Assembly: GCA_043228905.1 (NCBI GenBank)
Contig: JBHGNT010000017.1
Span: 13,268,001-13,332,000 of the forward strand
From: Azolla caroliniana
Lineage: Eukaryota; Plantae; Polypodiophyta
Length of the DNA stretch: 64,000 bases
Direction of reading: 5' to 3'
The notes under the pieces were generated by a model. That model was not told the origin of the DNA. It searched no databases and saw only the letters and a list, made by a program, of their open reading frames with translations. Both the position numbers and the translations under genes were made by a program. The stretch's first letter is position 1, and each line of letters begins with the position of its first letter. This document shows, one piece after another, positions 2,262-34,700 of this stretch.

Positions 2262-4088
2262 ATGGGGGTACAAAATCAAAGGCCAAATGAGGGAAGGGCC
2301 CTTATAGAATTTCGATTGTGGCGAGCGCAGAAAAGCACGCGAAGTCTCAGACACACAAAGCACAGCCCCCTCGCAGAGAAGCACACCGACGACGACGAAG
2401 AAGACTCAGGTCCCATGGCGCTCTCTAATGCAGCACTTGAACGGTTCACCAAGAACGGACTCGAGGGATTCCTTTGAATCGCAGATGCACCACTGCATGA
2501 AGACCCGGAACAGGTCGCACCAACTATCGACCTTGAAGAAATAACGAAGGGCACAATCCAAGCCCTCACAGGCATACAAGCGGGGGGACTTCGATCGGTG
2601 GAGAGCCCATCCACTGAGACATTAATTGAATATTTCGGTGAGTATTCCCTCAGCAGCAAGGCGTACCGAATGCAAGGGGGAGAAGACCCTCTATTCCGGG
2701 AGGTGGCCCAGGTGCTACTGGAATATGGGTTCATGCACTCACGACCGTTGGCCATACCAAAATACAGAACCGGATTCATTATAGCAACGTACGAGGGACT
2801 AAAGGTGGATTGGGTGAAGATCGTCACTGAATGCTTGAAATCCGCCATAGAATCTGTGGCGAAAGGGAAGAAATCTTGGACAGGGGTAGTGCAGTGGCTA
2901 ACCTTATTAGTACCCCCCGTCATCACCACCAAACCTAAAAAGAGGGGCTGACCGGAGACAACGCCAAAGAAAGCAACCAACAGGCGACAACTCCTGGAAA
3001 AGCACACCCCAAGATGGACCTCAGAGGACGCATCACAACAAGAGGAAAGCCAAACCAGCAGGAGACCAGAACCGGCAGAGACAGACATAGAGAGACCGAC
3101 TAAGCCAACTAACTAGACACAAGAAGCGGAGGATACAGTTCCGGTAGGAACGAAGCCAATCAAAATCACATTGCGCCGGAAAGATCAAGAACCGGAGGAC
3201 TTTATACACAAAATCTGCCTGGAGACCATAGAAGAGGAGGCTGAGGAGGAACTGGCCAAAACCTTGGAATGACACGCAAAGAAGCGGGGTCGGGAGCAGT
3301 GGGCGAAAGAACCGGCTCTAACTGTGGTGGTGGAAACCCAAGACAGAGAGGAACCATGGAGTGGACAGAGCAAGGCACCAGCCGGCCAACTGGCACCGGA
3401 CAAGGAGCAAGTCCTTTCATCGGGGCTAAGTCCCAAGCAGCCAGAACAACAGCCGAAACCGCCACTGAACGAGGGCGCACAAAGCGCCCCAACGGATGGG
3501 GGAACGCATGGGCTGGAATAGGGCACATGCCAACAATGGCTAAGATGGATGGGAGAGCATGTCGCCGGCGTGGCGGACGAACTAGACGAGGAACAAAGGC
3601 AAAATAGACACCTCATGTGCACAACTACCGAAGACCTGGAGAAGGTCAGAGCCCAGATGCGGGGCATGGAAGAAGAGTTAACAAAGGCCAAGGAATATGC
3701 GGCCAACATGGCCAACATGGGCCAACAAACGAGTGTCGACAAAGAGCTGATTTGGTCGACAAGGAAGCAAAGGGCAACACTGGAACCAGAATCGGAACCA
3801 GTGGTGGATACAACCTCGAAAACCGGCACTGAGTTCGCCCAAGAACTAAGGACCTTAATAGAGGAATTGGCGGCTTAGGAGGCACTAAGAGGAAAAGAAA
3901 GGGAACATAAGAAATTGGTTGAGGAAGAACGACAGAGAGTCGAGGAGAACCTCCGAAAGAGCCACGCCAACAATGACCGGCTAAAGGAAGAAAGGGAAAA
4001 GCTGCTACAGGAGAAGGATAAGCTCCGTCGACAAGTTGGAACAGAAATAGAACGGCTGAAAGAGGAGCTCCGACAATAGAAAGACAAG
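2262..4088 (+). pseudogene. Extra ORF downstream of Gypsy pol (5' part), coiled-coil rich, interrupted by a DNA transposon
   Basis: Same-frame ORF pieces (2262-2477, 2598-2951, 3324-3521, 3549-3878) are separated by single stops. The reading resumes in frame at 13038 once the DNA transposon is removed (K-D-K|D-D-Q-L-R-S-Q). Confidence 0.7.
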
Positions 4089-4457
4089 AACACGTTCGCG
4101 TTCACAAGTGGAAGGATCGCGCATAAATGGAAGGATACGGGGAAATTTTGGTTGATTTTAGGGTTTTTTCAATGATTTTACAAAACACATTGATACTAGT
4201 ACCATACATGTTCAAACATACTATGAAAAAGGTTAAAAATCCACTATTTTCGTGATTTAGAAGTAACTAAAAAAAGACGAATTTCAAAAAGTTACATTCT
4301 CAATTTATATCACAAACTTTACAACCAATGTTATTTTATAAGAAACGATTTTTTAGAAATCATAAGAATTCAAAACACATGCTTTTATATTACTCGATTT
4401 GTTACAAGCGGAATGTAGTTACACTTTATAGCCAAATATACATTCATCATCACTCCT

Positions 4458-7192
4458 TTACGGAGAATCGCTACTATAACTAATATACAATGACGATTCC
4501 TCCTCGTCATCCTCAGATGTACCAATCAATGCATTATCTTCGTCATAAACCAAATGGTTTGACTCTAGATTATACGTAGCAGATCTCGTTTGCCTTTGAT
4601 TCGAGCCACCTTGTAGACCTGGTAATTTTTCTTTTATTATATCTATTGTTGACTTCCTTAATCGTCTGGCTTTTGTAAGGGTGAAGCCGTACACGATGAT
4701 ATCCACATCAGAGATATCAAGGGTCGAGGTGTTACGAATGTTTTGCTTCCTCTTCCTACCTCCCCTTGTTGTTGGGCATTCAATCATCTCCAATGTATAC
4801 TTACCTGTAAAAGCATTTGCACTTCTAGTGTTGTACCAATGAACATTTATAGACTTGATCGTGTTTTCTATTTCATGCATTAGCACTTCTAGAATTTTAC
4901 CAACCCAAAATTGGTGGCCTTGTGAGTTCTCATCAGTCAGCGTTGCAATCAACATCCCCGCGGTGAGCTCATGCAAATTGCCTTGCCATCTAGCTTCGGC
5001 TGCTTTGGTCATCCTTGGTCCCACATAAATGTCTCTTTGTTGTGGATGGACCAAGCTGTCATTAATCACATTTGTTGGTTGCTCTGGAGTTCTATTTACA
5101 CGATCATGTTGCAGCGACCATGTGAATGGCGTTTCCAAATTCCAATTATCACCAAATACACAATTGTCTATAATTCCTTTCTGATCACTATAAAATACAT
5201 CCCACCATGACGTGTCTTGTTGTGCGTCATATTTCTTGGCGGCCTCAATATGCTTTCTTTTTTCTTCTAAGGCTTGGAGCCATGACCGTTTTTGTTCCGA
5301 TACCAAGTCACTCTACAATTGTCCTTTCTTCTCAAATGGCATTTGCGTAGCTCCATGGACAATTGAACTCGGCATACAAAGTAATAACTGGCAACCACCT
5401 TCAGGTTCCCATGTTGTAGAAGATGAATATTGTTTAGCATACAAAAGTGTAGAACCACTTACTCCATTTTTCTTTATCATAAAAATGTGATTGAAACTTA
5501 TATTGTTTAACTGAGCAAGCACTTTAACATTCCCACCACCCCCATCTGATATATATCTCTTAAAGTCATATACCTCCTTCAAGTGTAACACTTTTGGGCG
5601 TGGTGTATATGCATCACAAATGACATCAAATAGTTTAGGTAAAGTGAAAGCATCATGCTGAGACAACTGTCTGGAGAATGTGCTAAACATCTGATCTATA
5701 TGGTCATGTGTGTGGCCAACCAAAAGAAAATTGACTTTCACTTTCCTAAACAATTCTTGGTTGACCAACATGCTTAGATAGCCAAACACAGTTGAATTTT
5801 TGTTCTCTCTAGCAGTATTGTCCAATTGAATGTATAGAACAGGGGGGAAAGGTTGGCCCCAAGACATCAAAACTCGGTGAATGACTGTAACTATTAGGTT
5901 AGGGTCATTGTGAACATTGGGGTATGTAATGAAGACGTGAGGTCCAACAGACCTATTATAAGCCAACCATCCCACCAAGTGCATTTGAACAAGGCACTCA
6001 TCATTGACATCTTTGGGGAGCCTCCACATATGCGGCAAGCACGTCTTCTTCTGGTTCATGCCATCTATCATTAAGCACATGTATTGTTCGGGCCTCTTCA
6101 AACACTTCTCTCTATGATGCATCGCCTTCTTTCGTTCTAACGATTGTGCCTCACGATGCTCTTGTAGTAACTTCTTAAACTCATATCCTTTTCCATTGAT
6201 GTCTTTGCACCTTTAGCCAAACTTTTAAGATTTGCACAAATGGAGTAATACCCCATGCGTACTTTACGTGGAATGATACCATTTGAAAACCGAGCTCTCC
6301 ATAATCTTGTGAATTGGCTATAGGTGATAGACTTATTACGTGAGCCCACCATATCAGATCGATAAACATCATAAACTTCCCAACGTGTATAATTATCAGA
6401 AAGGTGCATTCTACCTGTAGTGGGCATTACTTCACAATTTAACTGAAAGTAACTTTTCATCCAACCAATAGCATGTCTTCCAATTGCACCTTTCATACTT
6501 GGAACCTCTTTACAATTGAGCATCTGATCCCCGCTAAGTAGACGTTGTTGTACTCTATGTAGCCGCATGTTACTAACACATAACGCAATTTTGAATGCAA
6601 CTCTACATATCTGTTGCGTATGGAAGATATAATACTCGAATGATACTTTGATCCCCGTATGTTGCATATGTGACCCGAGGTAAGTGTCTTGCTCATCACC
6701 AGTCATCGAAAAATAGTATCGCCTTAATTCTCGCAACTTTGATTTTCCAATCATAGACATACAACCACAGGCACAACATATTTTTTTGACATCAAATCCA
6801 ATCTATTTATCTGATGTCACCAAGCTAAATCTAGCTAGACGAATTCTTCGTGGGATTCTTCTAATATGCATAGGGCTTCCAGATTTCTCTTCCTGCATAG
6901 AGGTTGGTGTAACCTTGTTACAATCTAATTCTTTGTTGTGACCATCGCCAATGTTATTCGATGTTTCATTGGCACTACCTTCATTCTCCGTATCTTTATT
7001 AATATCGTATTCTTCAATAGAGAACTCTTCACTTGTGTCATTATTTACATTCCCTGTAGGTGAAGAGGTGCTCAGACAATATTCTTCGATAGAATGTGGT
7101 GAGTCTGTCGACAAACAATACTCTTCAGTAGAAAACGATGAGTCTGATGACAAACAATATTCTTCAATCGAGAACAGTGAATCTTCACTCAT
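4458..7192 (-). pseudogene. DDD-type transposase (Sola-like / DUF7869-like), disrupted
   Basis: ORFs 6803-7192, 6137-6760, 5313-6122 and 4458-5306 join via two in-frame TAGs and one frameshift (~6140-6190). Motifs: CCACGC, ICRVAF..L.VS..RL, CEVMP...HL, IDGM(N)QKKT.LP, YIQLDNTARENKN, FLLVGHTHDHIDQMFS. Confidence 0.85.
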
Positions 7193-7860
7193 GGCTTAAG
7201 GTCTAGATAGGGCTCTGTAAGTTATGTGCTTAGGCTAAGCCAAAAAACTAATAAGCTCCTCTCTAAACATATACTTCTCTCTAAACATAAACTTCTCTCT
7301 AAACAAAAGCCCCCTCAATAGAATGTCTATATTATTTAATATTATATTAATACAATACATAGAAATATTATTTTTAATATAGTAATTGTATTTAAAATAT
7401 CAATAATTATTTAAACTAGGTCTATATGAAGTTAAATCAAGTATAATATAAATCCAATCATTACCAACCCATAAATATGATGGATTAAAGTTAAAATCAT
7501 TGGCTAATTAATGGCACCCATATTTGATATAGAACCTCTCAGTCATTGGTTCATTAATGCTCACCATTGTAAATATTAGACTTATCAATCATTGGTTAAT
7601 TCATGCCCACATCTTTAATACACAGCAATTGAGAGTCATAAAAATGTTGTTTTTAGTAATCAATCATTGGTACATTCATGAACCTCTATCATTGTCTCCT
7701 TCATGACCTTTAAAGTCATTGTAAGTTATTATGACTTTGTAATCATTAATGCAATCATAAGTTACTCTAGTTAATGTGACTGTGGTTACCAACTAACTAA
7801 CCTTAAACTTACCAACCTTGGTTAGGGTGACTAGGTTACTTTAACCACTGTGGTCAATCC

Positions 7861-7870
7861 CTATAAATAG
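7861..7870 (+). promoter_or_regulatory. TATA box of the ParB-methyltransferase gene
   Basis: CTATAAATAG lies ~118 bp upstream of the ATG at 7979 and is followed by a CA-rich 5'UTR-like stretch. Confidence 0.6.
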
Positions 7871-7978
7871 GAAGACCTCGTCATATTTCACTCACAAGAG
7901 TACACAAGACCATACAAGAGCACACAGAGCACGAAGCACGAAAGCGCGATCTCCATCTCCACTGCCACAAATTCAACC

Positions 7979-10900
7979 ATGTCTTCAAAGAGAATTGAGC
8001 ACCAGGACTCTAGGTAAGCCTCTGACACTGTGGACATTTTTGTAAATATGTTTTGTCACTCAAGAACTCGATACGCCGTATCGAGTTCCTGTGTGTTCTT
8101 TGCTTTTTAAACAGGAACTCGATACGGCATATCGAGTTCCTGTTTAAAGTTAAGGTGTGGAATATTTGTGTTTAAAACATGAACTCGATAACGTGTGTCG
8201 AGTTCCTGGATTATTTTTGCGTTTTACTCGATAACTTGTGTTTTTGGGGCAACAATTGAGTATTGTGTGGAAAAGATATCAAACTGGCTGTCAAAATCAG
8301 TCTTTTTTATGTCGACTTCCCTTACTTTTAAAAAAAACTGGGCCTTAATTATAAGTGTTTTATGACCTACTATAGCCTAAAATAGTAGAAAATAACCCAC
8401 AAATTACCTTTACGATACCAATCTCAAGTCTATCATATGCAAATTATCTACAATGTAGTTATGGAATCAATATAAGTCATACCTGCCCTTCAAGACAATA
8501 TATAACCTTGTATACTCATTACGATATATATTTTCTAAGTTGTATACTCATTACGATATTTGAATATAGGACTACCATGTACTCTAAATGCATGATTGAT
8601 ATTTATAGTTCACCACTAATCGCCTGCTAGTGTATTTCTTCATCTACTTATTTATATTTTAATATACAACCTTAATCTACGTGACCGCCTAACTTATGTT
8701 TTCACATGTACTTTCTTAAATAGGTCGTTTGAGAACCTGTTGGACCGACCTGTGAAGAAAATAAAGCTTCGCATATAGGGTTCTCCAATCGAAACACAGA
8801 CCCTAGTAGCTCCCGAGTCCATGAAGAGAGGAAAAAAGCTTCTCTTCAACGAGGAGTCAAAATCTCAACCACACATTGACGTCAGCCAAAAGAAACTTGT
8901 AGCAGCAACTGGAGGTGAAGACCTTCCTGACCGTGATCTAACGGACAAGGAATGGTGTATGCAATATGTCGACTCAAAGAAAAAAGTCATATTGTATACA
9001 GCAAAGAAGAAGGGGGAGGGGCAGTTTGGAAAGGAAACCCCATTTATGTATGGCCGTATTCTACGATTTGACTACGAAGATGCAGATTCGGCCAACATAC
9101 TGGTAATGATAGAGTGCTCCAAGGGGGTACATAAAGTGTTCCTTTCAGAAGATCTTCTAGTAAAGGAATCTTGTGGGCCAGAAGCGTTCAAAAAAGATCT
9201 TGAAAGCTCACAAAACCTTATTGTTACCTTGAGGCCTTATATACAAGGCCATGTAACTCTAAGAGATGAAGTGCCCTCCCCAGTGAAGGCCACAAAAAGG
9301 GTATCTAAAGTACAATCAAGACCACCAAAGAAGAAGACAACGAAAATGTCGGAGTCTGATTCAACAAGTGAAAACGAAGAGGAGGACACTAAGGGGACGC
9401 CAGGAGCTGAGCTGGCATCGGGTGTGTTGTCATCCGAGCAGAATAAGATAAGGAGAGAGTTAATGCAGCGTAAACTGGTCAGGAAAGGGCAAGTGTTTAA
9501 TTTGCCTATAACACACATCCATCGGCCCCCTATTGATGACAAAACAGGTCAAAGACCACTTGAGATTAGAGAGCCACACCGCATGCATGTACAAAATCTC
9601 AAGAAAAAAATGAAAATTAATCCTCATGCCACTGTGGTGCCTTTTATTGTTATGGTAGATCCTGAAGAATGTGAAACCATTGAAGATTTTGATATTAGAA
9701 AGCATGATCAATATAATTACTTTGTCATTGGTGGATCGCATTCAGCGGAGGCACGTCGGCAACTTGTGAGAGAACATCCAACAACTTTCTTCTTCAAGTA
9801 TGCCGAGTGCAAAATTTATGTGGGGCTCACAACTGAAGAGGCCAAGCTGTTGGCATGGGACCATAATAATGATAATGACTATAGGTAGAAAATGTCGTCG
9901 ATTGAGCGTATACGGTTCTTCCACCACGAGTATTTGGACGTGAAACAAAAGTTTGGTGTGAAGCTACATCCAGGTCTACGACATCAATGTCTGCATGAAG
10001 TCGGTATTGTTGTAGATGATAATGTTAAGTCCAATGGTCTTCGAAAATATGAGTCTTGGTTTCAACTGGCCTTTAGAGATGGAGAAGTATGGGACCTACA
10101 GGATCAAATCTTCTAAATGTGGGAGAATAAGGAGGTAAAGGGTCAACGACAAAAGAAATGTAAGGTTGACCCTCAACTAGAGTTAAAGTCACAAGCCGCC
10201 AAGAAAATTGACTTGACAATTGAAGAAGCGGCTGACGACATGAAGTTGTCTCTGTGGAGAGCGATGCAAGGTATTAAGGACGAGTAGCTTCTTGTGCCTG
10301 TTTTGTTAAGGGTTGTGGCGAAAGATTTAAGCCTTGAAGAAATGGTCACTGAGTTCAATAAGTCTTTCAAATACTGAAATTGTAGTCTATATGGTGTAAT
10401 TCAAAGTTCTAATCTTGATTTCTAATTTTACAGTCATAAGGTGTACATGAAGATCCAAGAAGTTATGATGAAACAACTTGGATGTATAACTTGGGAACAA
10501 GTGACCGAGGATTATCCTCTAACGTCTTCATATAAGGCGTTATCAGAGTATTTTATTGCATTCAAGGATTGGGTTATTATTGGTGGTTTTTCATTACACT
10601 TTCATCATATGTAGAGCTTGTATAATAATACCTGATGTCCTATTGCTTCTATTAGAAACCGTGTCGTGGCAAGAAACAAGGAGAAGTTAAGGATATACAC
10701 GATTTCCCTACATCCTTCCTTGCACATCTCGAGCGAGCCAAAAAAGAAAAGGATCGTTGCTTAGTCAAGGCGTACGAAATGGAGGAAGATGGCTCCTTTA
10801 AAAAATTTAGCCACAAAAAAGATATTACGAGAGATCTTTACTACAATGTGGTTTGCGGCGATGTCGTCGACTTGATCCAAAAAGTGCCAAAGAAGGAATA

Positions 10901-11946
10901 TACGCTAATGATTGCGGATATTCCTTATGGATTTCGAATGGTTGGGTCATCATACGACGATGAACTATTTAGGTTTAAACAATTGGAGAAGATGGTCAAG
11001 GATTTCGTTGAGCTAACGACTGCATCCTTGTGGCGAATAGTTGTCTTTCATAGTATGGACCAAGGGTACTCGGTAGCTCAAGCTTTGAGATCTCGTTGCC
11101 ATGGCATCGAGAACCTTGCATGGTAAGGATTATTTATAGGTGTCATTCACTATATTGCATTTCTTGAGGTTGTTCAATCTATTCTTAACTCGATGTATTA
11201 TTTTTTATAGGATAAAAACCAATGTAAATAGAGGGCCAACTTTTCGGTTCGTTAATTCCATTGAATACATCACGGTTGGCTACTTCAATGAAATTAAGAA
11301 ACAGAGAATCAAGGAGCATTCTAATGAAGTGGGAGGTTCAAATCTGTTGGTATATCCAGTAGTGACACGGAAATTGCGACATGTCACCACGACAGAACGG
11401 GGACTTGTCAACCCATATCAAAAACCTCAGCGACTTATGATATGCTTGATCGAGATGTTTTCTATCGAAGGAGACTGGATATTAGATCTCTTTTCTGGCA
11501 CAGGTATTCCTCGAACTAGGGTAACGATCTTGAGATAACCAATACCGAATCTTTTTTTTTGACAACTAAATCTTCTTGTTACTTACTTCACAGGAACGAC
11601 GTTTGCATGTGCATTGAAGCTCTTTAGAAATACAATTGCATTGGACAAGGACGAGGAGCAGGTTATATTTATTAATATGCGGATTAAGGCTTTGTGGGAG
11701 TGCTCAGACCAGGATGAGGAGGTCGGTGCAAAGAACCTCGCTAATACAGAAAGGTTTCAACCTGCTTCGCGAGAGCCTATTCCTCCGTTAGTCGGCGAAC
11801 CGGGGGAGCTAATAGAGCTTGATGATGAGCTTATAAAAGATATTTTGTTGGCTCAGCTAACAAGGGAAGCCAATGCACGTATAGCCGAAGAGAGTTCTAC
11901 ACAAGATGATGAAGAAAATGACGTTGATGAATTGATTGCTATGTAA
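7979..11946 (+). pseudogene. Six-exon gene: ParB/Srx-like domain fused to a beta-class N4-cytosine/N6-adenine DNA methyltransferase; premature stops in this copy
   Basis: Exons 7979-8013, 8724-10361, 10434-10572, 10656-11122, 11211-11503 and 11594-11946 are joined by GT-AG introns in consistent phase. ParB-like motifs: YFVIGGSHSAEA and GLTTEEAKLLAWDHN. MTase motifs: CGDVVDLI, ADIPYG, W|IK, NPYQKP, DWILDLFSGTG|TT, LKLFRNTIALDKD. Stops at ~8776, 9886, 10114 and ~10285. Confidence 0.88.
8064..8205. repeat. Three palindromes GAACTCGATA-N5-T(A/G)TCGAGTTC in intron 1
   Basis: Copies at 8064-8088, 8115-8139 (extends to a 19-bp stem, 8106-8148) and 8181-8205, plus a half-site near 8226. Confidence 0.9.
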
Positions 11947-12405
11947 TAGACTCTATGAAGAAAATGACACTGACGATTTGTTTGGATTTCACATTATTAA
12001 TACAAATTTTGGGTTTTACCTAGTGGATTCTATTCTTTATAATCTTCTATATGTTTCAATTTTATTTTTATATACTTGGTTAGTAGATTTATGACATTGG
12101 TTTCACCGCGTGCATAGCTGACTACCAAATTTATGGAGAAACATGAATTAGTTTAAATTGAGGCTTATTTTGGTCCAAGCTAATCTTAACATAACATGGC
12201 CCTACAATTGTTGCCATGACTGTCCATGTTGTTATTATGGATCTTTATCTTCTATTGTTAAAACTATTATGTTTCTATTCCATTGCTGCTTAGATTGTGT
12301 AGTGTGTTGATAATGGTTCCACTAGCGTTATCCGCATGTTTTTATACGCTTGTAGTTCCACTTGCGTTATCATTCAGAGTTTGATCCTGTGTGAATCACC
12401 TAAGC

Positions 12406-12656
12406 AATAGAGTAGATCAATTTTAAATATAGGTATGAAAGCCTTAATAGGTTTGTTATTTCCACGACATTATCCTAAAGTTCACTGCCTTACATTGTCC
12501 ACAGTTATATACATATGGTTTGATCCCATTCGAACAAACTGAGGAATAGATTAGATCAACTTTAAATACAAGTATTGAATACTTTAATAAGTTAGTTATT
12601 CCAATCACATTATCCTAAAGTTCACTATCCTACATTGTCCACAATTATATACATGC
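12406..12656. repeat. Diverged ~110-bp direct duplication near the right end of the DNA transposon
   Basis: AATAGA.TAGATCAA...ACATTATCCTAAAGTTCACT...ACATTGTCCACA.TTATATACAT occurs twice, about 140 bp apart. Confidence 0.8.
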
Positions 12657-13037
12657 ACATATGGGTCAAAGTATAAATTATAACTCATTTTATTAGTATG
12701 GATACAAGTACACCTCATATTTTTGTAAAACTTACCTAATTAATATAAGTCTTTAACTTAGCGTTTCCCTTGTCGCACAATAGTGACATATTGAGCCATT
12801 GTTGAACTTTATTATGCCTACATTAACTTATCAACACGTCCAAACTTGCATGATTTCTAATGATCTCCACTCGTAGACCTATCATGTATTTTTATATTTG
12901 CAAATTCTCATCAAGTTGAGGAACATGTGATACTAGTGCATCCAATTTTTGTAGAGAGGGTATATTTGCTTCATTTCAAGAAGATTCTACAAGTGGAATG
13001 CGCAATCCTTCCACTTGTGAACGTGAACATATTCAAG

Positions 13038-13527
13038 GACGACCAATTGCGTTCCCAAGTAAATCGACGACCCAAGCAAAAGATCGAATATTTTGATAAA
13101 CTGTACCGGGAGCACAAGCAAATAGAGGCAGATTACAAGAGGCGGGAAGCAGAATTCGACCGGCAACAGGATAGATTGAAGGAGCTGCTGAAGGAGGCAC
13201 GGATGGACCTGGCACAAAAAATGGACGAGCTTGAGAAGAAAATGGAAGCTTTGGCAGAGGAGACGACAAAGGCGGTAGAAACGGCAAGGTTATTGGAAGA
13301 AGCGGGAAAGGAAAAGTTGGAGCTCAACAAGCAGCAGTTTGAGGCGGAACGGGAAAAGCTAGTGCTAAACAAACTCCAAACGACATATCAGCACCCAAAG
13401 GAAGCCGGGGACAATCGCCGAAACGGAGGAGCAGCCCCCAAAGGAAGTCAAGGAAACAATAGAAGCAATTGTAGCAGCAAAGCACCCGGTTGATACCGGT
13501 GATAGAAGAGATCCCAACGTCGAAGCC
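13038..13527 (+). pseudogene. Continuation of the Gypsy extra ORF (coiled coil)
   Basis: E/K/Q-rich heptad-like sequence in frame with the 4088 end. It ends abruptly at a junction with minus-strand protease sequence. Confidence 0.65.
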
Positions 13528-14527: not shown

Positions 14528-17500
14528 TGTCGTGCCTTTCGGCTCCGGATCGTTTGCGTGAGTCGGGTGGGAACCACTGGGGTTTTGGACTAGGAAGAAG
14601 AGAGTTTTAAGGCTAATAAGAATATAAATATGTTGTAAGAAAGAGTTATAAGAATATAAACTTCGGTTGAAAGAGAATGATATAGAATTCTCGTGAATCC
14701 CACGAGTATAGTTTATTAATTGGTGTTTTTTAGAAACATATCTAGTTTCCAAATATTTTTCACACACAATTACATTGTGCTCCCCATCCTTATGTAGTGA
14801 TGAGGAAGTCTTAGTAATCTATGCTTTTTCTCTAACTATAGACCCCATGCTTTTCCTATAGATAGACTATATGCTTTATCTAAAGTGATCATGCTTTTTT
14901 CTAACTTGTGCGTTTTTTATCATGCACGCTAGATGTGTATGTGTAGCTTTTTCTTTTGTTATGCGTTTTTCTAATGTTTATCCTAGCTTGAATTTACCTT
15001 TCTATGTGGGACATCTATGCTTTAACACTAATGAAATGCTAGTGTAATGGTAAGACATTACATTATTAACATGGAGGTGCAAGGTTCGAATCTTGCCCTA
15101 TGCATGTTCCATTTATTTTGTTATTTTCTTCTATTTCTTCATTTTTTATTGAATCTAATACTATATACGTTTTTCACGTAGTGTACAAAATACACTACGA
15201 CACTCACCCCCTCCAAACCCGCACATCCTCCGGTATGTGCCGAAGTTGTTGGTGTTTGTTAGTCTCCTCCTTCATCCTCCGTTTGTCCCGCTATGTCAAC
15301 TTTGTCTCTCCATTTTGAGTAGACCCATTCTTTCCACCCGAACCATTGTCGCCATCCGATCCACCATATTCTATGTTCGCTTTTTGCATGGCCCGCTTGG
15401 TCCTTGTCATCCGCGGTAGTATCTTTTCTTGCCCTCTTTCTTTTCTTCATCAATCTCGACTTCTTTTCGGATTTTCGGTTTAGTCGGATTAGCTTACTTC
15501 CGATTCGGTCTCGTCGGATCGTCTTTCGTTTAGTTCGGCTTCCTTTCCGATTTGTATTCGGTCGATCCGGACTCGGTTGATCGGTTTTTACCGATTCAGT
15601 GCTCTTTCGGGTCGGTTTCTTTTCTTTTCTTTTCGTCCGGATTTGCTTTCTTTTCTTCGTTTTCACCTGCCTTGTCCGGTTCGACTTTCGGCACTTCTTT
15701 CCGTTGTTCGCCACGTAGGTCCTCCGATATGTGCTCGTTGTTCGGTCCTCGTGTGGTTGTAATGCATGCTTCTTTTCTCGCCGTAGCGCGTGCTTCTTTA
15801 TTCGCCATAACACGCGTTTCTTTATTCGCCGTAGAGCGTGCTCTGTATTACGCGCTTCTCCCGTCGTAGACCCGACCTCCGCATTGTCGCACTTTCTTTT
15901 AGATTGGAATTTCGGATGGATCATTTTCCATCCGAACCGACTTCCGACTTTACCTTCCTCGCCGCCATCTCCCGTCTCTCCGGTCTCACGTTGGTTCTCG
16001 GACACAACCGCCGAAGTCTCTAGATATTGTTGGCATGAATCCTCGGTATTACCTTCTTTCGTAGTTTCACCCTTAGCATTCTTCTCGGCTATCTCTTCAT
16101 CGTATTCGTCGGCTTCGACATTCGTTTTCTCTCCGCCACCTTCCGTCTCTTCGGTCTCACGCTGCCTTTCGATCGCAACCGCCGGAGTCTCTGGAATCAG
16201 TGGTGGGGAAGTCTCGATATGGCAATCCGCCATTGATTCGTCCATAGCCACCTCCGATTCGATTTCGTCTTTTGTGGTTACCTCCTTAATCACATCCGCT
16301 TCACACTCTTTATCTGCATCAATTATGCAAACATCTATTATGCTTACCCCTTTTTGACCCGATGTCTCGGGCACTTGTATCCCGAAATTTCCTTCTACAC
16401 TTGAATTATCGGCCTTATCCTTCGCCATCGTTCTTTCACAAGACGAGTGGGTGTCTTGTTCCACTCTTTCTCCCGTGGTACCATCATGTTGTATTTCGGC
16501 CTTCATATTGGCTTCATCGTTTTTCCTCAATCGACCATCCTTCATGGGCCATGTCGTTGTTGACGAGATTCTCAGCTTCCTTTCATCATGTCTTCGGCAT
16601 ACCCTTTCGACTTTGGCCCAATCCTCGGTAAGGCCGTTCGCACCGTCATCATCTTCGAGTTCGATCCCAATGTCCATCCTTTCTTTCCGATCGATCGATC
16701 TTACGAACATTAAGACTTTATCTTCTCCCACCAATCTTCGTTCCCGCTCCGAGAGTCGAGCAAAACGATGCTCGAACTCTAGGAACGCTTGCGTTGCACT
16801 TCGGTGAGTCTTCTCCGACGCCACCCATTCGTCGAATTCTCGTCGATCTCGTCCCGTCCATCTCTCATAGTCATATGCCTCCCGTAAAGCTTCTTCAAAG
16901 GACTCCCATGTCGAGTTTTGTTGCCATATCTTGTGGATTCTCTCTTGTAGCTCATCCGTGGCCACCCGACTAAAGGATATCACTTGCAATCCTTCCGGTA
17001 TCCGATATTGCATCATCTCCGCCTTATATTCACGTAGGTAGCGTGACACACCCTTACCGTTGAATTCCCCGTTTCGTCGCAGAAGCCGCTCTACTGCCGC
17101 CTTCATCTCCGACATCGCACGTTGTTCTTGTAGCATTCTCTCGAACATCATCATCATCATGTTCATCGCCTCTTGTTGATTCTCCATCTCCTTGCCACCC
17201 GCCTTCACGTCGGGTTCACCAACTGTGTCGTGCCTTTCGGCTCCGGATCGTTTGCGTGAGTCGGGTGGGAACCACTGGGGTTTTGGACTAGGAAGAAGAG
17301 AGTTTTAAGGCTAATAAGAATATAAATATGTTGTAAGAAAGAGTTATAAGAATATAAACTTCGGTTGAAAGAGAATGATATAGAATTCTCGTGAATCCCA
17401 CGAGTATAGTTTATTAATTGGTGTTTTTTAGAAACATATCTAGTTTCCAAATATTTTTCACACACAATTACATTGTGCTCCCCATCCTTATGTAGTGATG

Positions 17501-17900
17501 AGGAAGTCTTAGTAATCTATGCTTTTTCTCTAACTATAGACCCCATGCTTTTCCTATAGATAGACTATATGCTTTATCTAAAGTGATCATGCTTTTTTCT
17601 AACTTGTGCGTTTTTTATCATGCACGCTAGATGTGTATGTGTAGCTTTTTCTTTTGTTATGCGTTTTTCTAATGTTTATCCTAGCGTGAATTTACCTTTC
17701 TATGTGGGACATCTATGCTTTAACACTAATGAAATGCTAGTGTAATGGTAAGACATTACATTATTAACATGGAGGTGCAAGGTTCGAATCTTGCCCTATG
17801 CATGTTCCATTTATTTTGTTATTTTCTTCTATTTCTTCATTTTTTATTGAATCTAATACTATATACGTTTTTCACGTAGTGTACAAAATACACTACGACA
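14528..17900 (-). mobile_element. Young non-autonomous gag-only LTR retrotransposon (TR-GAG-like)
   Basis: 675-bp LTRs at 14528-15202 and 17226-17900 (TG...CA; one mismatch seen); ACGT TSD; PBS at 17204-17221 complementary to the plant tRNA-Trp 3' end; PPT at 15203-15214; no pol. Confidence 0.93.
15259..17187 (-). CDS. Gag-like protein with acidic middle region and very basic C-terminal tail
   Basis: Uninterrupted ~640-aa ORF (first ATG MENQQEAM). Gag-like N-terminus FNGKGVSRYLREYKAEM...WESFEEALREAY. No protease, RT or integrase motifs. Confidence 0.75.
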   Translation of the reverse strand: MENQQEAMNMMMMMFERMLQEQRAMSEMKAAVERLLRRNGEFNGKGVSRYLREYKAEMMQYRIPEGLQVISFSRVATDELQERIHKIWQQNSTWESFEEALREAYDYERWTGRDRREFDEWVASEKTHRSATQAFLEFEHRFARLSERERRLVGEDKVLMFVRSIDRKERMDIGIELEDDDGANGLTEDWAKVERVCRRHDERKLRISSTTTWPMKDGRLRKNDEANMKAEIQHDGTTGERVEQDTHSSCERTMAKDKADNSSVEGNFGIQVPETSGQKGVSIIDVCIIDADKECEADVIKEVTTKDEIESEVAMDESMADCHIETSPPLIPETPAVAIERQRETEETEGGGEKTNVEADEYDEEIAEKNAKGETTKEGNTEDSCQQYLETSAVVSENQRETGETGDGGEEGKVGSRFGWKMIHPKFQSKRKCDNAEVGSTTGEARNTEHALRRIKKRVLWRIKKHALRREKKHALQPHEDRTTSTYRRTYVANNGKKCRKSNRTRQVKTKKRKQIRTKRKEKKPTRKSTESVKTDQPSPDRPNTNRKGSRTKRKTIRRDRIGSKLIRLNRKSEKKSRLMKKRKRARKDTTADDKDQAGHAKSEHRIWWIGWRQWFGWKEWVYSKWRDKVDIAGQTEDEGGD

Positions 17901-19779
17901 ACGTCAGTTCCCTAAAGCTTGGAAACCACGATTATTCTGTCGATCATACCATGAATGCCGAGGTGCATCGTAGTCATTGTTGTTGTAATTCCTACAGCAG
18001 TGGTGGTGGTCCTGATGACAGTGCCAATGATCATTCATGTGGTGTGATTGATTGGGGTAGCAAGAGGGCTCTGACCGATACTGGTTATCCCTATGGTAAC
18101 AATCCAGTTCGGAATTGCCCCCCTTGTTGCAGTGGGGCCTATCGTCTTCCCATGGCCGTGTCGGCTCTTTATTCCATGGAGGTGGTTGCTCTTGAGGTTG
18201 CGTGTGGTTGGCGCGGGGCTCAATTTGGTGGACTGGGGCCGTGTTCGTTCAATTCAGCATGTTGTATTCAGTGTTCACATTGCTCCACCGTATGGACCCT
18301 TGAATGGCAGATGAGGTAGTGTGGTCGTGAGGGACAATCAAGAGCGGAGTGGCCAAATTGGGCACATATCGTGCATTGCAGCGCTTGCCGGAACTGAGTT
18401 TCCTCGGCCATTGGTAAGGTGGTTTGAAGTGTGCCCATAGCGAATGAATTATTATGATGTGCCCTATCCAACACAAGGACGTGGGCGACCGCTTGCTCGA
18501 TGGTATGTTGAGAAAAATCCGTAAGAGCCAACGTCATGCGTAGAGGCTCATGGAGACCAACCAGAAACATATCTTTCAAATGATTCACAAATACATACTG
18601 TGCGAGTTGGCGGTACAAGTCTTGAAACCGGCAAACAAACTGGGACACGGTTTCGATAGGTCCCTGGCCAATCGTATAAAATTGACGAAGCAATTCCTGC
18701 TTCGGGATCTCTTGGTGGAATAATTCCAAAAACTGGGTGCGGACATCCTGGAACGTGGTAAACTCCCCAGGATCATGCCGGGAATACCACTGTGCAGCGG
18801 GGCCGTCGATGAAGAGAGTGAATTCAGCGATTTTGGAGGCGGCAACCTCCTTGGCGGTGAGTCGCTATGTCGAATGGTTGGCTTGCCATGTGTTGAGAAA
18901 GGAACAGATGTGGCCGTCGGTGTCCAGGCCATTCGTGTAGCGGGCATAGGGGTGGTATGGCATTATGTCAAGCTCTGGATCTTCCGGTAGGGCCAGGAAT
19001 GGGTTGAGCTCCAGTTGTGGTGAGACTTCTAGAGGACTTGGAGGGGTAACAAGGTCAGGACCGATCTGCGACTATGTGTCCGGGATCACCGATCGCGAAG
19101 ATTGCAATTCCGGGGATGAGTGTTGTGTGGGGCGGGGCGGCGGCCGAGAGCAAGTAACTCTGTTTGGCGTCCTAATGACGACTAGGATGACCACCAACGT
19201 AAGTTCGTTGTATTGCACAACGTGAACCGGGTGTGCCAAATTGTGTTGCCTTCCCTTCCGGAGGCAACACCTTCGATTTCCTAGTCAAAATCAGACCAAC
19301 AGTTGTGGTACGTGGTAGTCAGGGCGATACCAGAAAACAAGATTTCAAATACGTTACGTAAGAGGAGGTCTCTTCCGAGAGAGTGTTTCACCACATCAAT
19401 TCCATAAGGGACAACAATCACATAACACCAACACAAGAAATAGACCCAAAACTATATGTATTACGAGTAGGTAATGAATACAGTTACACAGCTCATGGCT
19501 GGAATTAACAGCGAAGTGATAGTATGACCTAGACCCTCAGAATCCCATAATCACGGGTTATAGTTCCGTTCGTTTTTCTCCTCTCTCGCACTTTGCTTCT
19601 TTTTATAGCTTTTCCCTTCCTCTTTGCTTCGGCGCGCTTTGCTTCTTCCCGTTCTTGGCTGCGCATACTGCAGATGTCTTCGTTCCTCACGGTTGTTCGT
19701 AATTACGGTTGTTCACCTACTTTGACCTACTTCCTCTTATGTTTCTTTGAATTACCATTTTTGCCCATGGACAACAAAA

Positions 19780-19930
19780 GGATTAGGAGTGAAATGATTA
19801 GGAATAGAAGGATTAGGAGTGAAATGATTAGGAATGGAAGGATTAGGAATGAAAGGATTAGGGATGGAATGATTAGGAGTGAAATGATAAGGAATGAAAG
19901 GATTAGGAATGGAAGGACTAGGAATGATTT
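19780..19930. repeat. Tandem minisatellite, ~15-bp unit (GATTAGGA(G/A)TG(A/G)AAT/G)
   Basis: About 10 consecutive variant units immediately outside the putative LTR end. Confidence 0.85.
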
Positions 19931-23098: not shown

Positions 23099-25541
23099 TC
23101 ACTTCTGAACTTGTGCAACTATCTCTTTGACAAGATTGTCTAGGTCTGTGTCCCGAAGCTTCTTAAAGGGCCTTGGCATGTTCTACAAAAACAAGAGAGA
23201 TTTGACAATAAGGTATTATCTGAATGTGGCGGTCCTGGACATGGAATCACAATTAAAGAAATGGAAGTTCAGGACAACAGACGTACCTGGAGAGAGATGA
23301 AGACTTTCCCCTCCTTATCCCGTATCTCAAAGCATCCTTTCCTAGGCTGAAGAAAACAGTGAATACGATATTAAAAAAACATAGAGCAAAGATGCATCAT
23401 CATAGGATACAAACGCTTATGTGAGCTTATTATTTATGTACAAACATTAGTTCCCTACGTCCAAATAAATATGTAGATGTGTGTATATTTATTATTTATG
23501 TATATATATATGTATATATATGTATATACATGCATGTAAATGCATTATCATAGCATAAAAATGCATCGGTAAGATTATTGTGTATGAACAATGATCCAAC
23601 GGATAGTGCCCTACGTCAAAACAATAAAAAATGCATGGATATGAAACTATGAATGGATGCATGCATGTAATGTATGTATCAACAGAACAACGATTAGCAG
23701 AAAGAGAAATCACCTTATCAGGATTCACAACCACCTCTATCCCAGAAAGAGCTTTCGTCAGATCCTCTTGAACCTTGGCAGCCCTTGTCTTGAAAACATT
23801 ACATTCTTTGCTGTAGGGGAAAAAAGCAATAAATATGCACATATATTAGAGACCACAATGATCTAGCACCATATAAAACCAAAAATATGAATGGCATCAT
23901 GAAGACAAAGTCTAATGTAGCATATAGTAAATGAGCCAGATTCAACAATTATGATAGATGTCATCATTTGTTATTGATTGTGATGTAAGAGTTACCAATA
24001 ATTTTAAGGCAAAAATATGCACGAAATCGAGAATTTTATTGAAATGTGAAACCAAATCATTGGTCTAAATAAGAAAACACATTCTGGGTCTGATTGCTTT
24101 TGTGGCAATCCTGCCTGAAAAGGCTATTCTAACATGGACAGACAGACGGTTACCTTTATGTGAAGAATGCCTAATCTCTCATCTATAAAACGACCATTCT
24201 TACCCAACAGTACTGCATGCAAAAAAAGACCTAGAATAACTCTTAAGAAAATGAAAATGGCTGCTAAAACATACATAAGATGGCCAAGATTATGCAGATA
24301 AACTTCTATCTAGCTAAAACATTCCCGAAAATAGAAAAACACTTCCACTGAGATAGCATAAACAGTGTCTACACACAGATAAATCAAAACAAACACAAAC
24401 ACACGACGAAAATACACTAAACTAACACATAACCAAAGGACAATGTCTATAGACCTACCTAGCATAAGCAAAACTCTAAAATGCATTTTTGGTTAAGGAT
24501 CACAACAGAGAACTTATATAACTTTTAGCAAAATTAAACCCTCCAAGAAAAAATTTCCTATCTATAAGTACGAGCTAACCAACAGTTCAGTAAAGCAGGA
24601 AAGCTCACATACCTCGCCTCAATAATGATGAGGGAAGTTGGTTGAGTTGTTTTTGCCCCACGCTGCTTTTTTTCATTACGTTCTTCTTCTTTCTCAACGT
24701 CATTATTGCCTTTGTTATTCTCGTCATCCACAACTTTGTTCTTCTTGGATGGAGGAGGAAGTTTCTTAGGAGCAGGTTTTGCGACCTGACTCTCTTTACT
24801 CTCAGCTTTAACTCTCTGAGCAGAAGGTTTTGTAGTTACTTCTTCTTCTTCTTCTATTTCATTATGTTCATTTTCTTCTTCTTCTTCTTTTTGTTGGACA
24901 ATGAGGGATGTTGGTTGAGCTGTTTTTCTCCCACGCTGCTTTTCCTTTTGTCCTTCGCCTTTCTCAACTTCACCATTGCCTCTGTCGATCTTTTCATCCA
25001 CAACTTTCTTCTTCTTGGATGGAGGAACAGGTTTTGCCACCTGACTACTCTCCTTCCTCGCAGCTTTACTTCTCAGAGCAGAAGGCTTCTTAGTTGCTTC
25101 TTCTTCTTCTATTTCATTTTCTCCTTCTTCTTCTTCTTCTTCTTCATCATCATCGTCATGTTTTCCTTCAACGATGAGGGACGCTGGTTGAGTTAGTTTT
25201 CTCCCACGCTGCTTTTTCTCCTCACGTCCTTCTTCTTTCTCATTATTCCCTTCATCCTCAACTTTCTTCTTCTTCCTGGATGGAGGAGGAGCAAGCTTCT
25301 GCTCAGCAACAGGTTTTGAAACCAGCTGCTCCTTCCTCTCAGCAACAGGTTTAGCTCTCTTTGCAGAAGGTTTCTTAGATGCTTCTTCTTCTGCTTCTTC
25401 TTCTATTTCATCACCGTCGTCTACTACTTCATGAAGTTCTTTCCCGCCTTCTTCTCCAACAACAGAGGTGCGTGGAAGAGGAGGTTCCTTAGAAGCCTTT
25501 GCAGAAGAAGAATTACGAGTACTCCTCCTCTTAGGAGCCAT
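23099..25541 (-). CDS. SelT/SelW/SelH (Rdx) family thioredoxin-like protein, SelH-like, with a long K/E-rich repeated N-terminus (~389 aa)
   Basis: Exons 25541-24613, 23810-23714, 23346-23287 and 23182-23099 (GT-AG introns) give IIIEASKECNVFKTRA...VNPDKPRKGCFEIR...FISLQNMPRPFKKL, matching plant SelH-like proteins. Confidence 0.9.
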
Positions 25542-25547
25542 GCTTAT

Positions 25548-25678
25548 GTCTGTCTGTCTGTCTGTCTGTCTGTCGGTTGCTGCACCGGCACCAACCCTAA
25601 CAGTAACCCTAACCCTAACCCTAACCCTAACAGTAACAGTGACAGCGACAGCGGCAGAGAGTGAGAGACAGGGAAAGT

Positions 25679-25719
<41 letters not shown>
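25548..25719. repeat. Microsatellites in the 5' region of the SelH-like gene: (TCTG)n, (CCCTAA)n-like, (GA)n
   Basis: Directly visible simple repeats. Confidence 0.9.
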
Positions 25720-25724
<5 letters not shown>

Positions 25725-26149
25725 TACCGGACTAATTTGAATTTACCGACTTCTTCTTCAATATATTTTCAAGTGAGCGACGAAGCACGTGACGGGGGTG
25801 ATGATGACGCACGCACGCACGTGACGCACCGGTGACGATGGCTGTCGTCATCACACCTGCTCCATCCATGACGACCGCCCCGAGAAGGCTCCAATGGAAA
25901 GCCGCGTGCCCGCCCAGCCATACGTATCGTCTTTTGGTGTGCGCTCGATTGAAAGCATTTTGACTGTTAGGGCACATAACTTCATGACAATCGTAGTGGA
26001 ACTTCTCCTTTTTTTCCATAAAGATTTCCTTCATTAGTATTAAGAAAAAACGTCGTAAGGCTACAAACTGTACAATTGGAGAGTGTTATATACAAAAAGG
26101 ATAATCAGGGGAAGGGTTAGGGATGATGATATTTTCATATAGGTCCTTG

Positions 26150-31729: not shown

Positions 31730-34700
31730 ACAATGTACAGAAAACAAGAAAATTGTATATTGACAAGAATAAGACAACCAACAGTTACAAAGAGGAAGAG
31801 AAAGGTGGTTATGTAGTCACATTCTCTCTATACAACCACCACTTACTAAAGAGAGGTGGAGACTTAACTACACTAAATATGTGTCATAGAATTTCGGCTT
31901 TGAGTTGGCTCCAGCTTCGACTTTGGATGGCCGGCTCACTCTTGTGTTCGCTTTGGTTCGTTCAACGTCATGTTGGATGGATCCTTATACACACTCCCCC
32001 TCAAGCTCGGCTGGTCGGTGATCGAGAGACCGAGGTTTGTTGTGAACTGCCGTAGTTTGTCGTCTCCCAGGGCCTTCATGAAGATGTCAACCATTTGCAG
32101 ATTCATGTTGATGTGTTGCAGGTCGACATCTCTGGCCAGGACATGTTCTCGAATGAAATGATAGTGCACCTCAACATGCTTAGTCCGAGCGTGGAAAATT
32201 GGGTTTTAAGCCAGATGAATGTTGCTCATGTTGTCGCAATACACAAGAATTGGATCCTTGATGGGAACACCCAAATCCTGCAAGATTCATTTTAGCCAAA
32301 CAACATTGCATGCGGCGACGACCGCGCCCCTGTATTCAGCTTTTGTGCTCGACAATGCGATTGTCGGCTGCTTCTTACTGCTCCATGATATGGCTCCGCT
32401 ATTGAGGGAGAAGACAAATCCAGATGTTGATCATCTATCGACTTTGTAGTTGGCCCAATCGGCATTGGTGTAACCTTCGAGTCAAATCGGTGAGACCGAT
32501 TTGTAGAGGATGTCGTAATCCATGGTCCCACTCACATACCTTAGTACTCGCTTAGCACAGTTGAGATGAATGTCACGCGGAGTCTGCATGAACTGGTTAA
32601 GGAGTCCGACCGAGTAACTGAGATCGGGTCGGGTGACAGTGAGATAGATTAGGCTTCCAACTAGCTGACGATAGAAAGTCGGCTCACACTCTTTTGTGCC
32701 AGACTTGGCATCTAGCTTTAGGTTCCGATCGAGAGGGGTAGAGACAAACTTACACTCAGTCATCCTAAAGTTGTTAAGAAGATTGAGAATATAGTGTCGT
32801 TGGGAGATCATGATGCCGTTAGGAGTTCGAATTACTTCTATCCCTAAAAAGTAATGGAGCTCCTTCATGTCTTTCATTTCGAATCGGCCGGAGAGTAGCT
32901 TTTTGGTATGTTCAATATCACAAATGTGCTCTCCTCCAATGACCAAGTCGTCCACAAAAATTATAATTAATAGTTGTCCTTTGGAGTTGCTCCGGATGAA
33001 CATAGAATTGTTGAACTTGGACATTTTGAAGCTAATTTGGTGAAGATAGTGGGTTATCTTCGAATGCCATGTTGTCGGTGTCTGCTTGAGGCCGTAGAGA
33101 GGCTTCTTGAGTCGGCAAAAAACAGTTGAATCCATACCCGACATGAATCTGGATGGTTGTACCATGTACACCTCCTCTTCTAACTCACATTGGAGAAAGG
33201 CATTCTTCACGTCCATTTGGTGGAGGTGCCACCCTTTTGCTATTGTAAACGTGATCATGGTTCGAATGGTAGTCATCTTTGCCACTGGGCCAAAGGTCTC
33301 TTCATAGTTGTTGAGATATCAAGCTCAACTAGTTTAATCTAGTTAGTCAACACATGTAACTTAGTAGTTACCTAGATCGAATCTAGTTAATGTGTTGACC
33401 TTAAGCCTTTAAATAGGACCTTGTACTTAAGTGGGATATTCTAGATCCTCCACTCCTTAGTACATTTAATGTAGGACTTACACATAAGTACCTATGTTCT
33501 ACCCACACATGTGCACCTTTGCACATGGGTTGTATATACACCTCATTGTGGGTATTTTTGTAGTTGATGACACTTTTCAATATAGTCAATCATCCCCCAT
33601 TTATCTTTGTGTTCAAGTGTAACTTCCTCTCTCTCTCTCTTCCTCTCACACACTCTCACCCGCATATCATACTAATCTTCCGCTGCTTAACGTAACCATA
33701 TAATTAGTCTCTAATTAACCCTAGTTAATTACCTAATTACTTAACATGGTATCAGAGCGCGTGGTTTAGGAAATCCACTAAGCCCATCGCTTATTCGTGA
33801 TTGTGTGTTCGAGATGCCGACGACAAATCCCGGCTATTCGCTATCCGCTACCGTAATGCCGCTACGAAGGACGTGTATGCGACCAAGAGAAGAAAAACAA
33901 AACGGAAGACACAACAATCAACATGAACAAACAAATGGGAAGCTCGCTCCCTAGCGAAAAGCTAGACCGAAGCAACTATTCATCTTGGGAGTACAAGATG
34001 AATCAATACCTTGTCGGCCAAGGGTATTGGAGCTACATAAACGACGCACAAGAAAACAAACCCGAAACCACGCACGCCAACTACCCAACATGGGAGCAAG
34101 GCGCGAGTCGGGTAATGTATTGCTTGGAAACATGTGTAAATGACCACATGCTTAGCCACATTCGTGACGCCAAGACGCCCAAAGATGCGTGGGAAAATCT
34201 CAAGAAGATTTTCACCGCGGACACATCCGCGCGCAAGCTTCAACTCTGGCAAGAGTTGAACAACATACGACAAAAAGAAATGTCCGTGACGGACTACACC
34301 GCCAAGATCAAGAGCATTTGCGACTCTCTTGGCTCCATCAACGTCAACATCGATGAGGACGAGATGGTGCAAGTATGCTTGGGCGGCCTCGCATAACAAT
34401 TCAACCCGTTGAGAACGGCAATCTTGGCGAGAGATACCCCTCCCTCGTTCTTCAACCTCTAATCAATGCTATTGGTCGAAGAAAACCACGTTCAACCAAA
34501 GACCAACACATCGGAAGGACAAATGCTCTTCTCCGATACGGATGGTGCCCATAGACGAGGTCGACGCGGAAGAGGTCAATTCGATCTATCCCACGAAGGG
34601 AATTCACAATTTCGACAAGGAAACGGAAGCCATTGAGGAACCTTCACAAGAAGGGGGAGCTTCCATGCCGAACAAGGTCGGCGAACGACGCCACCTATGT

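Follow-up and report, generated by a model that had tools for sequence, protein, structure and literature searches.

A Sola1-Like Transposon Family of Land Plants Carries a Predicted ParB-Like Methyltransferase Gene and a Phased Palindrome Array

Introduction

Why should a cut-and-paste DNA transposon of a land plant carry a DNA methyltransferase gene of bacterial type, and is such a gene the accident of a single copy or a lasting part of a transposon family? The question is raised by an 8,945-bp transposon at positions 4089–13033 of a 64,000-nucleotide stretch of the Azolla caroliniana genome (contig JBHGNT010000017.1; hereafter the window), which encodes a transposase and, divergently, a cargo protein with a predicted ParB-like domain and a predicted DNA methyltransferase domain. 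We found that the cargo gene is stable within a high-copy transposon family and is under strong purifying selection, and that the element in the window is itself a decayed copy in which both genes are broken. We lean, if only slightly, towards a model in which the ParB-methyltransferase kept by the family binds an array of palindromes situated in the first intron of its gene and locally methylates the element, with adenine as the most likely target base.

Until now, ParB-methyltransferase genes carried by transposons were known only as predictions, and only from algae. For Sola1-1_Ec32 of the brown alga Ectocarpus, described in 2025, the design was predicted, and self-binding and self-modification were proposed but, in the available part of the report, never tested (PMC12477816). 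ParB-linked adenine methylases have been traced to phage packaging loci (PMC4738411, available in part). If active, the cargo protein studied here would be a transposon-encoded writer of N6-methyladenine (6mA), or of N4-methylcytosine (4mC), in land plants. It would then be relevant to the dispute over whether plant genomes contain such marks and where these come from, and would be a case of self-recognition by a strategy taken over from phages and plasmids.

Element Boundaries and Insertion Site

The two 36-bp arms of the terminal inverted repeat (TIR) agree at 32 of 36 bases, with all four mismatches being C>T or G>A changes, and the end of the element falls on the identical base as the family terminus consensus, AACACGTTCGCG (AACAC...GTGTT), which was obtained from related contigs. 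In public DNA runs from the same or a close species, contigs of related copies of the flanking retroelement join position 4086 to position 13051 with 15 letters between them, exactly as expected for an empty site with a single CAAG. Read depth in the public runs, which is not equal to copy number, is about 70–110 times the flank depth over the element, is high and even over both genes and falls at both TIRs. The original prediction of a transposon with two divergent genes is thus upheld by the TIRs, the CAAG duplication and the matches of both genes (Table 1).

The accompanying claim that excision restores a host Gypsy open reading frame (ORF) stands only in part. The reading frame of the flank survives removal of the element together with one CAAG (8,949 bp), but the ORF is not restored by excision because stops at 3876 and 4077 persist. 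Furthermore, the sequence at the insertion site turned out to be a coiled-coil ORF located downstream of integrase fragments, and not gag-pol.

Table 1. Coordinates of the features of the transposon in the window.
Feature	Position	Strand	Basis
Left target-site duplication, CAAG	4085–4088	+	Sequence; empty-site join
Left TIR, AACACGTTCGCG..., identical to family consensus	4089–4124	+	Related contigs
Sola1-like DDD transposase (DUF7869; IDGM, LDNT, GHTHDHIDQ), intronless	4458–7195	-	Pfam, motifs
Cargo exon 1, ATG	7979–8013	+	GT-AG, frame
Three palindromes, core CGATRC-N3-GYATCG at 8069, 8120 and, decayed, at 8186	8061–8208	.	Inverted repeats, related loci
Cargo exon 2: PH-like domain, acidic linker, ParB-N fold with GGSHS, helical DNA-binding-like region (predicted)	8724–10361	+	
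Cargo exon 3, helical linker	10434–10572	+	
Cargo exon 4, catalytic motif IV, IADIPYG	10656–11122	+	
Cargo exon 5, NPYQKP and start of S-adenosylmethionine (SAM)-binding motif I, DLFSG-TG	11211–11503	+	N6_N4_Mtase, E 2.8e-7
Cargo exon 6: end of methyltransferase domain, acidic tail, stop	11594–11949	+	
Right TIR, 4 C>T or G>A changes	12998–13033	-	Arm comparison
Right target-site duplication, CAAG	13034–13037	+	Sequence

Transposase and Cargo Genes

The minus-strand gene matches the Pfam family DUF7869 (E 1.1e-51). In the window copy it is split across three frames, and one of the breaks consists of 2 extra bases near position 6177 that are missing from other copies, whereas an uninterrupted transposase ORF of 818–915 codons is present in 9 of 13 related loci. 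The motifs IDGM, LDNT and GHTHDHIDQ, which we take to fit Sola1, are invariant in 13, 13 and 14 loci, respectively, and the intact transposase of locus L006 has a CxxC (CSIC) ahead of the DDD residues, as in Sola1. The 4-bp target-site duplication next to a TIR is also as in Sola1, being CAAG in the window and TGTT in locus L028, and is borne out by the empty-site join. The motifs are unlike those of the Sola2 proteins in the supplement of PMC3627910 (DFKEN, SDGAKHFKS, HGKSDVD), and the termini resemble those of Sola1-1_Ec32. No relatives of the transposase were found in the viral contigs searched. A 39-bp tandem repeat at 7076–7175 encodes FSIEEY-like repeats at the N-terminus of the transposase, and an FSIEEY-like motif opens the intact transposases in all three clades of the family.

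The cargo gene lies on the plus strand, divergent from the transposase gene and inside the TIRs, with six exons at 7979–11949 inferred from GT-AG sites and reading frame, 974 codons, and a TATA-like box by sequence near position 7863. It thus has the arrangement of Sola1-1_Ec32, in which a ParB-like and methyltransferase gene is placed opposite the transposase. The window copy contains 4 premature stops (3 TAG and 1 TAA), all in exon 2 and all at positions where relatives read glutamine, and its exon-2 splice donor lacks 4 bases that other copies have. With a split transposase, a cargo gene with premature stops and a damaged donor, the window copy is therefore dead. The family keeps open cargo genes, with no stop in 30 of the 39 loci that have all five coding exons.

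Linkage, Selection and Host Range

Copies of the element were studied in metagenome contigs and in the public runs; of 124 relatives from a metagenome scan, 80 loci were kept. A divergent transposase is present in all 12 related contigs with at least 2 kb upstream of exon 2. The family has made many independent insertions: L028, at about 55% identity, is complete from end to end and is flanked by a target-site duplication of its own, and each of the 27 right termini recovered has a distinct flank. In 14 elements, the pairwise distances for one of the two proteins correlate with those for the other (Mantel r 0.91, p 0.0001). The ratio of nonsynonymous to synonymous substitutions (dN/dS) in the methyltransferase domain is 0.02–0.08 in those pairs for which dS could be measured (7 of 15), the remaining 8 pairs being saturated with dN of 0.06–0.13, and the transposase core has similar values (0.05–0.06 in 3 of 5 pairs).

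Stable carriage, complete linkage, co-divergence and selection together bear out the original prediction of a transposon family with a methyltransferase cargo, and speak against the one-off capture that it named as a refuting outcome, as other copies do carry the cargo gene. The alternative that a host or bacterial gene was captured once, or that the two genes are juxtaposed by chance, found nothing in its favor; it is refuted by the linkage, the co-divergence and the purifying selection and by the conserved exon structure and the high depth over both genes, and we give it practically no weight.

In the liverwort Riccia, the DUF7869 model R1sor_010795 and the ParB-methyltransferase model R1sor_010796 have consecutive gene tags, the DUF7869/cargo models R1sor_022315 and R1sor_022317 have tags two apart, and the partners of both pairs are on contigs of matching size. 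Named homologues of the cargo protein occur in Ceratopteris, Adiantum, Ginkgo, Riccia and Chara. The nearest of these are Ceratopteris proteins (72% and 59%), and closer contigs reach 95%. Gene models with a “DNA methylase N-4/N-6 domain” or DUF7869 in Chara, Riccia, ferns and Ginkgo are likely to be parts of transposons and not host genes. Distant cargo homologues (P0111, P0125, P0192, P0151 and P0121) come from a sea cucumber, a hemichordate and an amoebozoan transcriptome, and no brown-algal homologue was among the matches listed.

Copies of the family are also nested. A clade-C element with an array of its own lies inside locus L014 (3280–5883), and family copies are inserted into the transposase gene of another copy at L033 (4033–6332) and L043 (3960–4052).

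Predicted Domains of the Cargo Protein

Profile and fold comparisons predict that the cargo protein is a beta-class DNA amino-methyltransferase of bacterial type. A fold search on the full-length homologue P0049 (predicted local distance difference test score, pLDDT, 82), used in place of the window copy, gave CcrM, M.BceJIV, M1.HpyAVI and RsrI as the best matches (E 2e-11 to 4e-9), with the bdelloid N4-cytosine enzyme at rank 20 (E 6e-9). A profile of 63 family sequences places N6-adenine enzymes first (CcrM, E 4e-15), and the alignment of CcrM, MboII, DpnA and RsrI spans the whole domain, whereas that of N4-cytosine structures covers its C-terminal half only. Motif IV (DIPY, residue 692) precedes motif I (DLFSGTG, residue 852), which is the order of the beta class. 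DLFSG is retained in 38 of 40 loci and DIPY, in place of the SPPY of N4-cytosine writers, in 46 of 50, and most relatives with the motif recovered have D-x-P-Y. Homologues of the cargo protein have PHROG DNA-methyltransferase matches with E-values down to 1e-27. The amino-methyltransferase call of the original prediction thus gained both profile and fold matches, but the link that it drew to N4CMT and DN4MT is weak, as those proteins have SPPY or TSPPY and the family is closest to N6-adenine enzymes.

Since the exon-2 product had no match in Pfam or PHROGs, the ParB assignment is based on its fold. The model of this product (mean pLDDT 78) matches ParB, Noc and KorB in Foldseek (E 2.5e-6 to 6sdk). 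In VIA it matches PadC (Z 9.2, root-mean-square deviation (rmsd) 3.0, 100 aligned), pNOB8 ParB (Z 8.7) and KorB (Z 8.3), and its helical region resembles the DNA-binding domain of KorB (Z 5.0). In the predicted model, a fold of the ParB-N/sulfiredoxin type precedes a helical DNA-binding domain, the order seen in a ParB clamp. The N-terminal domain is weakly similar to a PH-like or SANTA arrangement (Z 6.0 with 101 aligned, rmsd 5.2), other PH domains reach a Z of at most 4.6, and all scores for this domain in an Atlas look-up were below 0.8. A Tudor identity, also considered for this domain, was unsupported by the fold search. Taken together, the folds predict a ParB-like domain, a helical DNA-binding region of the KorB/ParB kind and a methyltransferase domain of the beta class.

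These likenesses could also fit a sequence-specific repressor or autoregulator, in which the methyltransferase domain would serve binding, dimerisation or RNA and the DNA would stay unmodified. KorB is a ParB-fold transcriptional repressor, the fold of P0049 also resembles METTL3 (E 3e-7), and motif IV is degenerate in the sea-cucumber-type homologue (DMPQ) and in animal relatives (DMPQ or DMPK). In the plant family, however, the catalytic and SAM motifs are near-invariant and the domain has the low dN/dS values given above, and we regard a protein that does not modify DNA as highly improbable.

Palindrome Array in Intron 1

An addition to the original prediction, which overlooked this segment, is an array of palindromes in intron 1 of the cargo gene (Table 1). 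The core CGATRC-N3-GYATCG is common to all three clades of the family, and among the matches listed, which are the host's own copies, the core is without variant and the flanks vary. The zone of intron 1 that precedes exon 2 holds 145 sites in 37 kb, compared with 8 in 296 kb elsewhere, and 7 of these 8 sit in a nested second element. At least one exact site is present in 20 of the 26 loci with at least 700 bp upstream, and at least two in 14. The arms of the palindrome covary (80 A-T and 51 G-C pairs of 142), and the CpG of the half-site is invariant. The array is not only conserved but helically phased: the spacings cluster at 31–32, 40–42, 50–52, 63, 72–73, 81–85 and 102–105 bp, and the 24 distinct spacings between 31 and 105 bp agree with a period of 10.4 bp (p 5e-5), so that the sites line up along a single side of the helix, as would suit a protein-loading array. 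The palindromes are probably ParB loading or operator sites, a reading suggested by the Bostrychia preprint discussed below.

Two other readings of the palindromes were rejected. A DNA site is preferred over an RNA hairpin because the mismatches have no clear bias of G-U over A-C and the spacing tracks the DNA helix, and TCGA is not an invariant target, since one clade has CCGAT.

The ParB part and the array could instead serve the mechanics of transposition, by bridging, compaction or recruitment of the transposase, and methylation could be a timing switch, as Dam methylation is for IS10 or Tn5. ParB- and KorB-type proteins are established to bridge DNA, and the elements are long (6–9 kb here and 21.5 kb in Ectocarpus). 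Regulation of IS10 by adenine methylation is also the subject of a reference cited in the available part of PMC3627910. However, the array is located beside the divergent promoters and away from the ends, and many DUF7869 elements elsewhere may move without a cargo gene, which makes a purely mechanical role for the array unlikely in our view.

The invariant CpG in each half-site brings in another alternative, in which the binding is as in the model that we favor but the mark is 4mC on the array or on nearby CpGs, where it would block maintenance of 5-methylcytosine (5mC) and counteract silencing. Such a role would also suit the unvaried core between varying flanks among the matches listed, and the presence of the bdelloid N4-cytosine enzyme among the fold matches. 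Against it stand motif IV, which is D-x-P-Y rather than SPPY in the family and in most relatives, the alignment of N4-cytosine structures over only half of the domain and the lack of CpG protection across the element. We therefore consider it unlikely. The observed/expected ratio of CpG is 0.58–1.01 in the coding parts of the element versus 0.82–1.28 in neighboring retroelements, and the escape from 5mC that was originally suggested is not evident, as CpG is no higher in the element. In a bias test on 4-mers in 16 elements with the arrays masked, TCGA, GATC and CGAT had values of 0.91–1.05, with neither avoidance nor excess, and the methylation target is therefore unreadable from composition.

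Other Features of the Window

Identical 460-bp direct repeats at 14528–14987 and 17226–17685 flank a minus-strand ORF of 681 codons that has no Pfam match. This unit (14528–17685) is a candidate for a very recent insertion into a retroelement, of the long terminal repeat (LTR) type or resembling a terminal-repeat retrotransposon in miniature, with candidate flanks that are GTGA/CGT-like. Two related Copia elements, at 33309–37238 and 58606–64000, are about 75% alike with near-identical LTRs, and the former is nested in a third, inverted Copia element (31993–37568). A 15-bp tandem repeat, AAAGGATTAGGAATG, is present in 10 copies at 19777–19927. Finally, a host-like gene with introns on the minus strand (23492–25742) has a long N-terminus of acidic and basic repeats and a short C-terminal exon, which presumably resembles selenoprotein-H-like proteins; fragments of this gene had no Pfam match.

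Discussion

In bacteria, ParB, Noc and KorB load on their own sites. According to the model that we favor, dimers of the cargo protein would similarly load on the phased array in intron 1, beside the divergent promoters. The loaded protein would then deposit a mark nearby, which would probably be 6mA, with a smaller chance of 4mC and little chance that no mark is made. This mark might tune the expression of the transposase and cargo genes, or the timing of transposition, for the protein's own family. If the mark is confined to array-bearing DNA, the benefit would stay inside the family, which would explain the selection on the gene. We infer the binding, the catalysis, the modified base and the benefit from the patterns described above, and self-marking by the cargo protein is in our opinion plausible.

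Several observations weigh against this model. The search for loci was conditioned on the cargo gene, so that relatives with only a transposase fall outside the count, and the depth of the cargo half is 0.68–0.81 of that of the transposase half. In 2 of the 3 two-ended contigs (L037 and L056), both termini are present but the flanking duplications are unmatched; these contigs are probably collapsed or rearranged. The ParB-like domain has GG[SNC]H where bacterial ParB has GxxR, and the arginine patch is thus absent. CTP (cytidine triphosphate) clamping may therefore not apply to the cargo protein, which has GGxHxxxA in place of GxxRxxA, presumably the arginine-finger and CTP-binding motif of bacterial ParB. 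The aspartate in motif IV is compatible with N4-cytosine activity, as in M.BamHI. No exact palindrome is present in 6 of the 26 loci and fewer than two in 12, the second spacing in the window (66 bp) is off-phase, and the phasing test left out 4 of 105 spacings (141–380 bp). Moreover, the loci in which the sites were counted are also those that yielded the palindrome pattern, and the contigs are related and partly collapsed, which makes the counts non-independent. Finally, CpG and CHG depletion in the element is equal to or beyond that in the neighboring retroelements, and the stops in the cargo gene of the window copy are all of the C>T type, so that the element can be protected from 5mC only in part or for a time, if at all.

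A broader hypothesis, which we put forward tentatively and with less confidence than the model for this family, is that there is an ancient, eukaryote-wide class of transposons in which a ParB-like reader of a family-specific phased array writes a mark that is not the host's own (6mA or 4mC). The relatives in animals and in an amoebozoan may be further members of this class of self-markers. If so, ferns, liverworts, Ginkgo and Chara would gain a transposon-borne, non-canonical methylation in parallel to the 5mC of the host, and the family would provide a natural module for site-directed methylation. Self-marking can be tested here, since the family offers many intact natural genes, a precise candidate site and selection on the catalytic domain.

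Comparison With Known Systems

The original prediction did not recognize the element as a described family. The novelty of the design fails, however, because this pairing, together with the self-marking hypothesis, has already been described for Sola1-1_Ec32 (PMC12477816). As far as the available part of that report goes, the two share AAC...GTT termini, which read AACCG-CGGTT in Sola1-1_Ec32 and AACAC-GTGTT in the present family, along with a 4-bp duplication and an opposite-strand gene for a ParB-like and N4C/N6A methyltransferase protein (1,104 amino acids there, 974 here), although the cargo proteins have been likened by description and not by sequence. Sola1-1_Ec32 is 21.5 kb long with an imperfect TIR of 282 bp and 2 intact copies, whereas the Azolla element belongs to a family of land plants with elements of 6–9 kb, a TIR of 36 bp, a high copy number and many open genes. 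A palindrome array, a selection test and a PH-like domain are not among the features reported for Sola1-1_Ec32 in the same text.

The Plavaka (EnSpm) elements of the red alga Bostrychia (bioRxiv 10.1101/2025.02.11.637652, available in part) have, in PAG2 and PAG3, a ParB-like gene beside tandem inverted repeats that were proposed as binding sites, and a PF01555 N6-methylase in the same element. They differ in belonging to another superfamily and in that the ParB-like and methylase parts are separate genes, fused to a 2OG oxygenase and to a SET domain, respectively. A combination of ParB and amino-methyltransferase is also shared with the methyltransferases of phage ParB-terminase loci and with the eukaryotic group-1 clade 6, or chlorophyte ParB-HTH Dam, proteins, which are encoded at packaging loci or by host genes and are, in the available part of that report, unlinked to Sola or to land plants (PMC4738411). 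Phage clusters with ParB_N and N6_N4_Mtase came up as look-alikes (0.86–0.87) and serve as leads only.

Marchantia DN4MT1 and bdelloid N4CMT are, like the cargo protein, eukaryotic beta-class amino-methyltransferases of prokaryotic origin. According to the parts of their descriptions that were available, they are host genes with (T)SPPY that make 4mC, DN4MT being without extra domains and N4CMT having a chromodomain, whereas the Azolla family has D-x-P-Y and a predicted ParB fold and is transposon-borne. The pairing of a Sola-type transposase with such a gene was not described for land plants in our literature search, which did not cover Iyer 2011, the original Sola paper or Repbase, where plant Sola1 families with cargo may be listed. 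Relative to the algal elements, what is new here is the range in land plants, the evidence for selection and the phased candidate sites.

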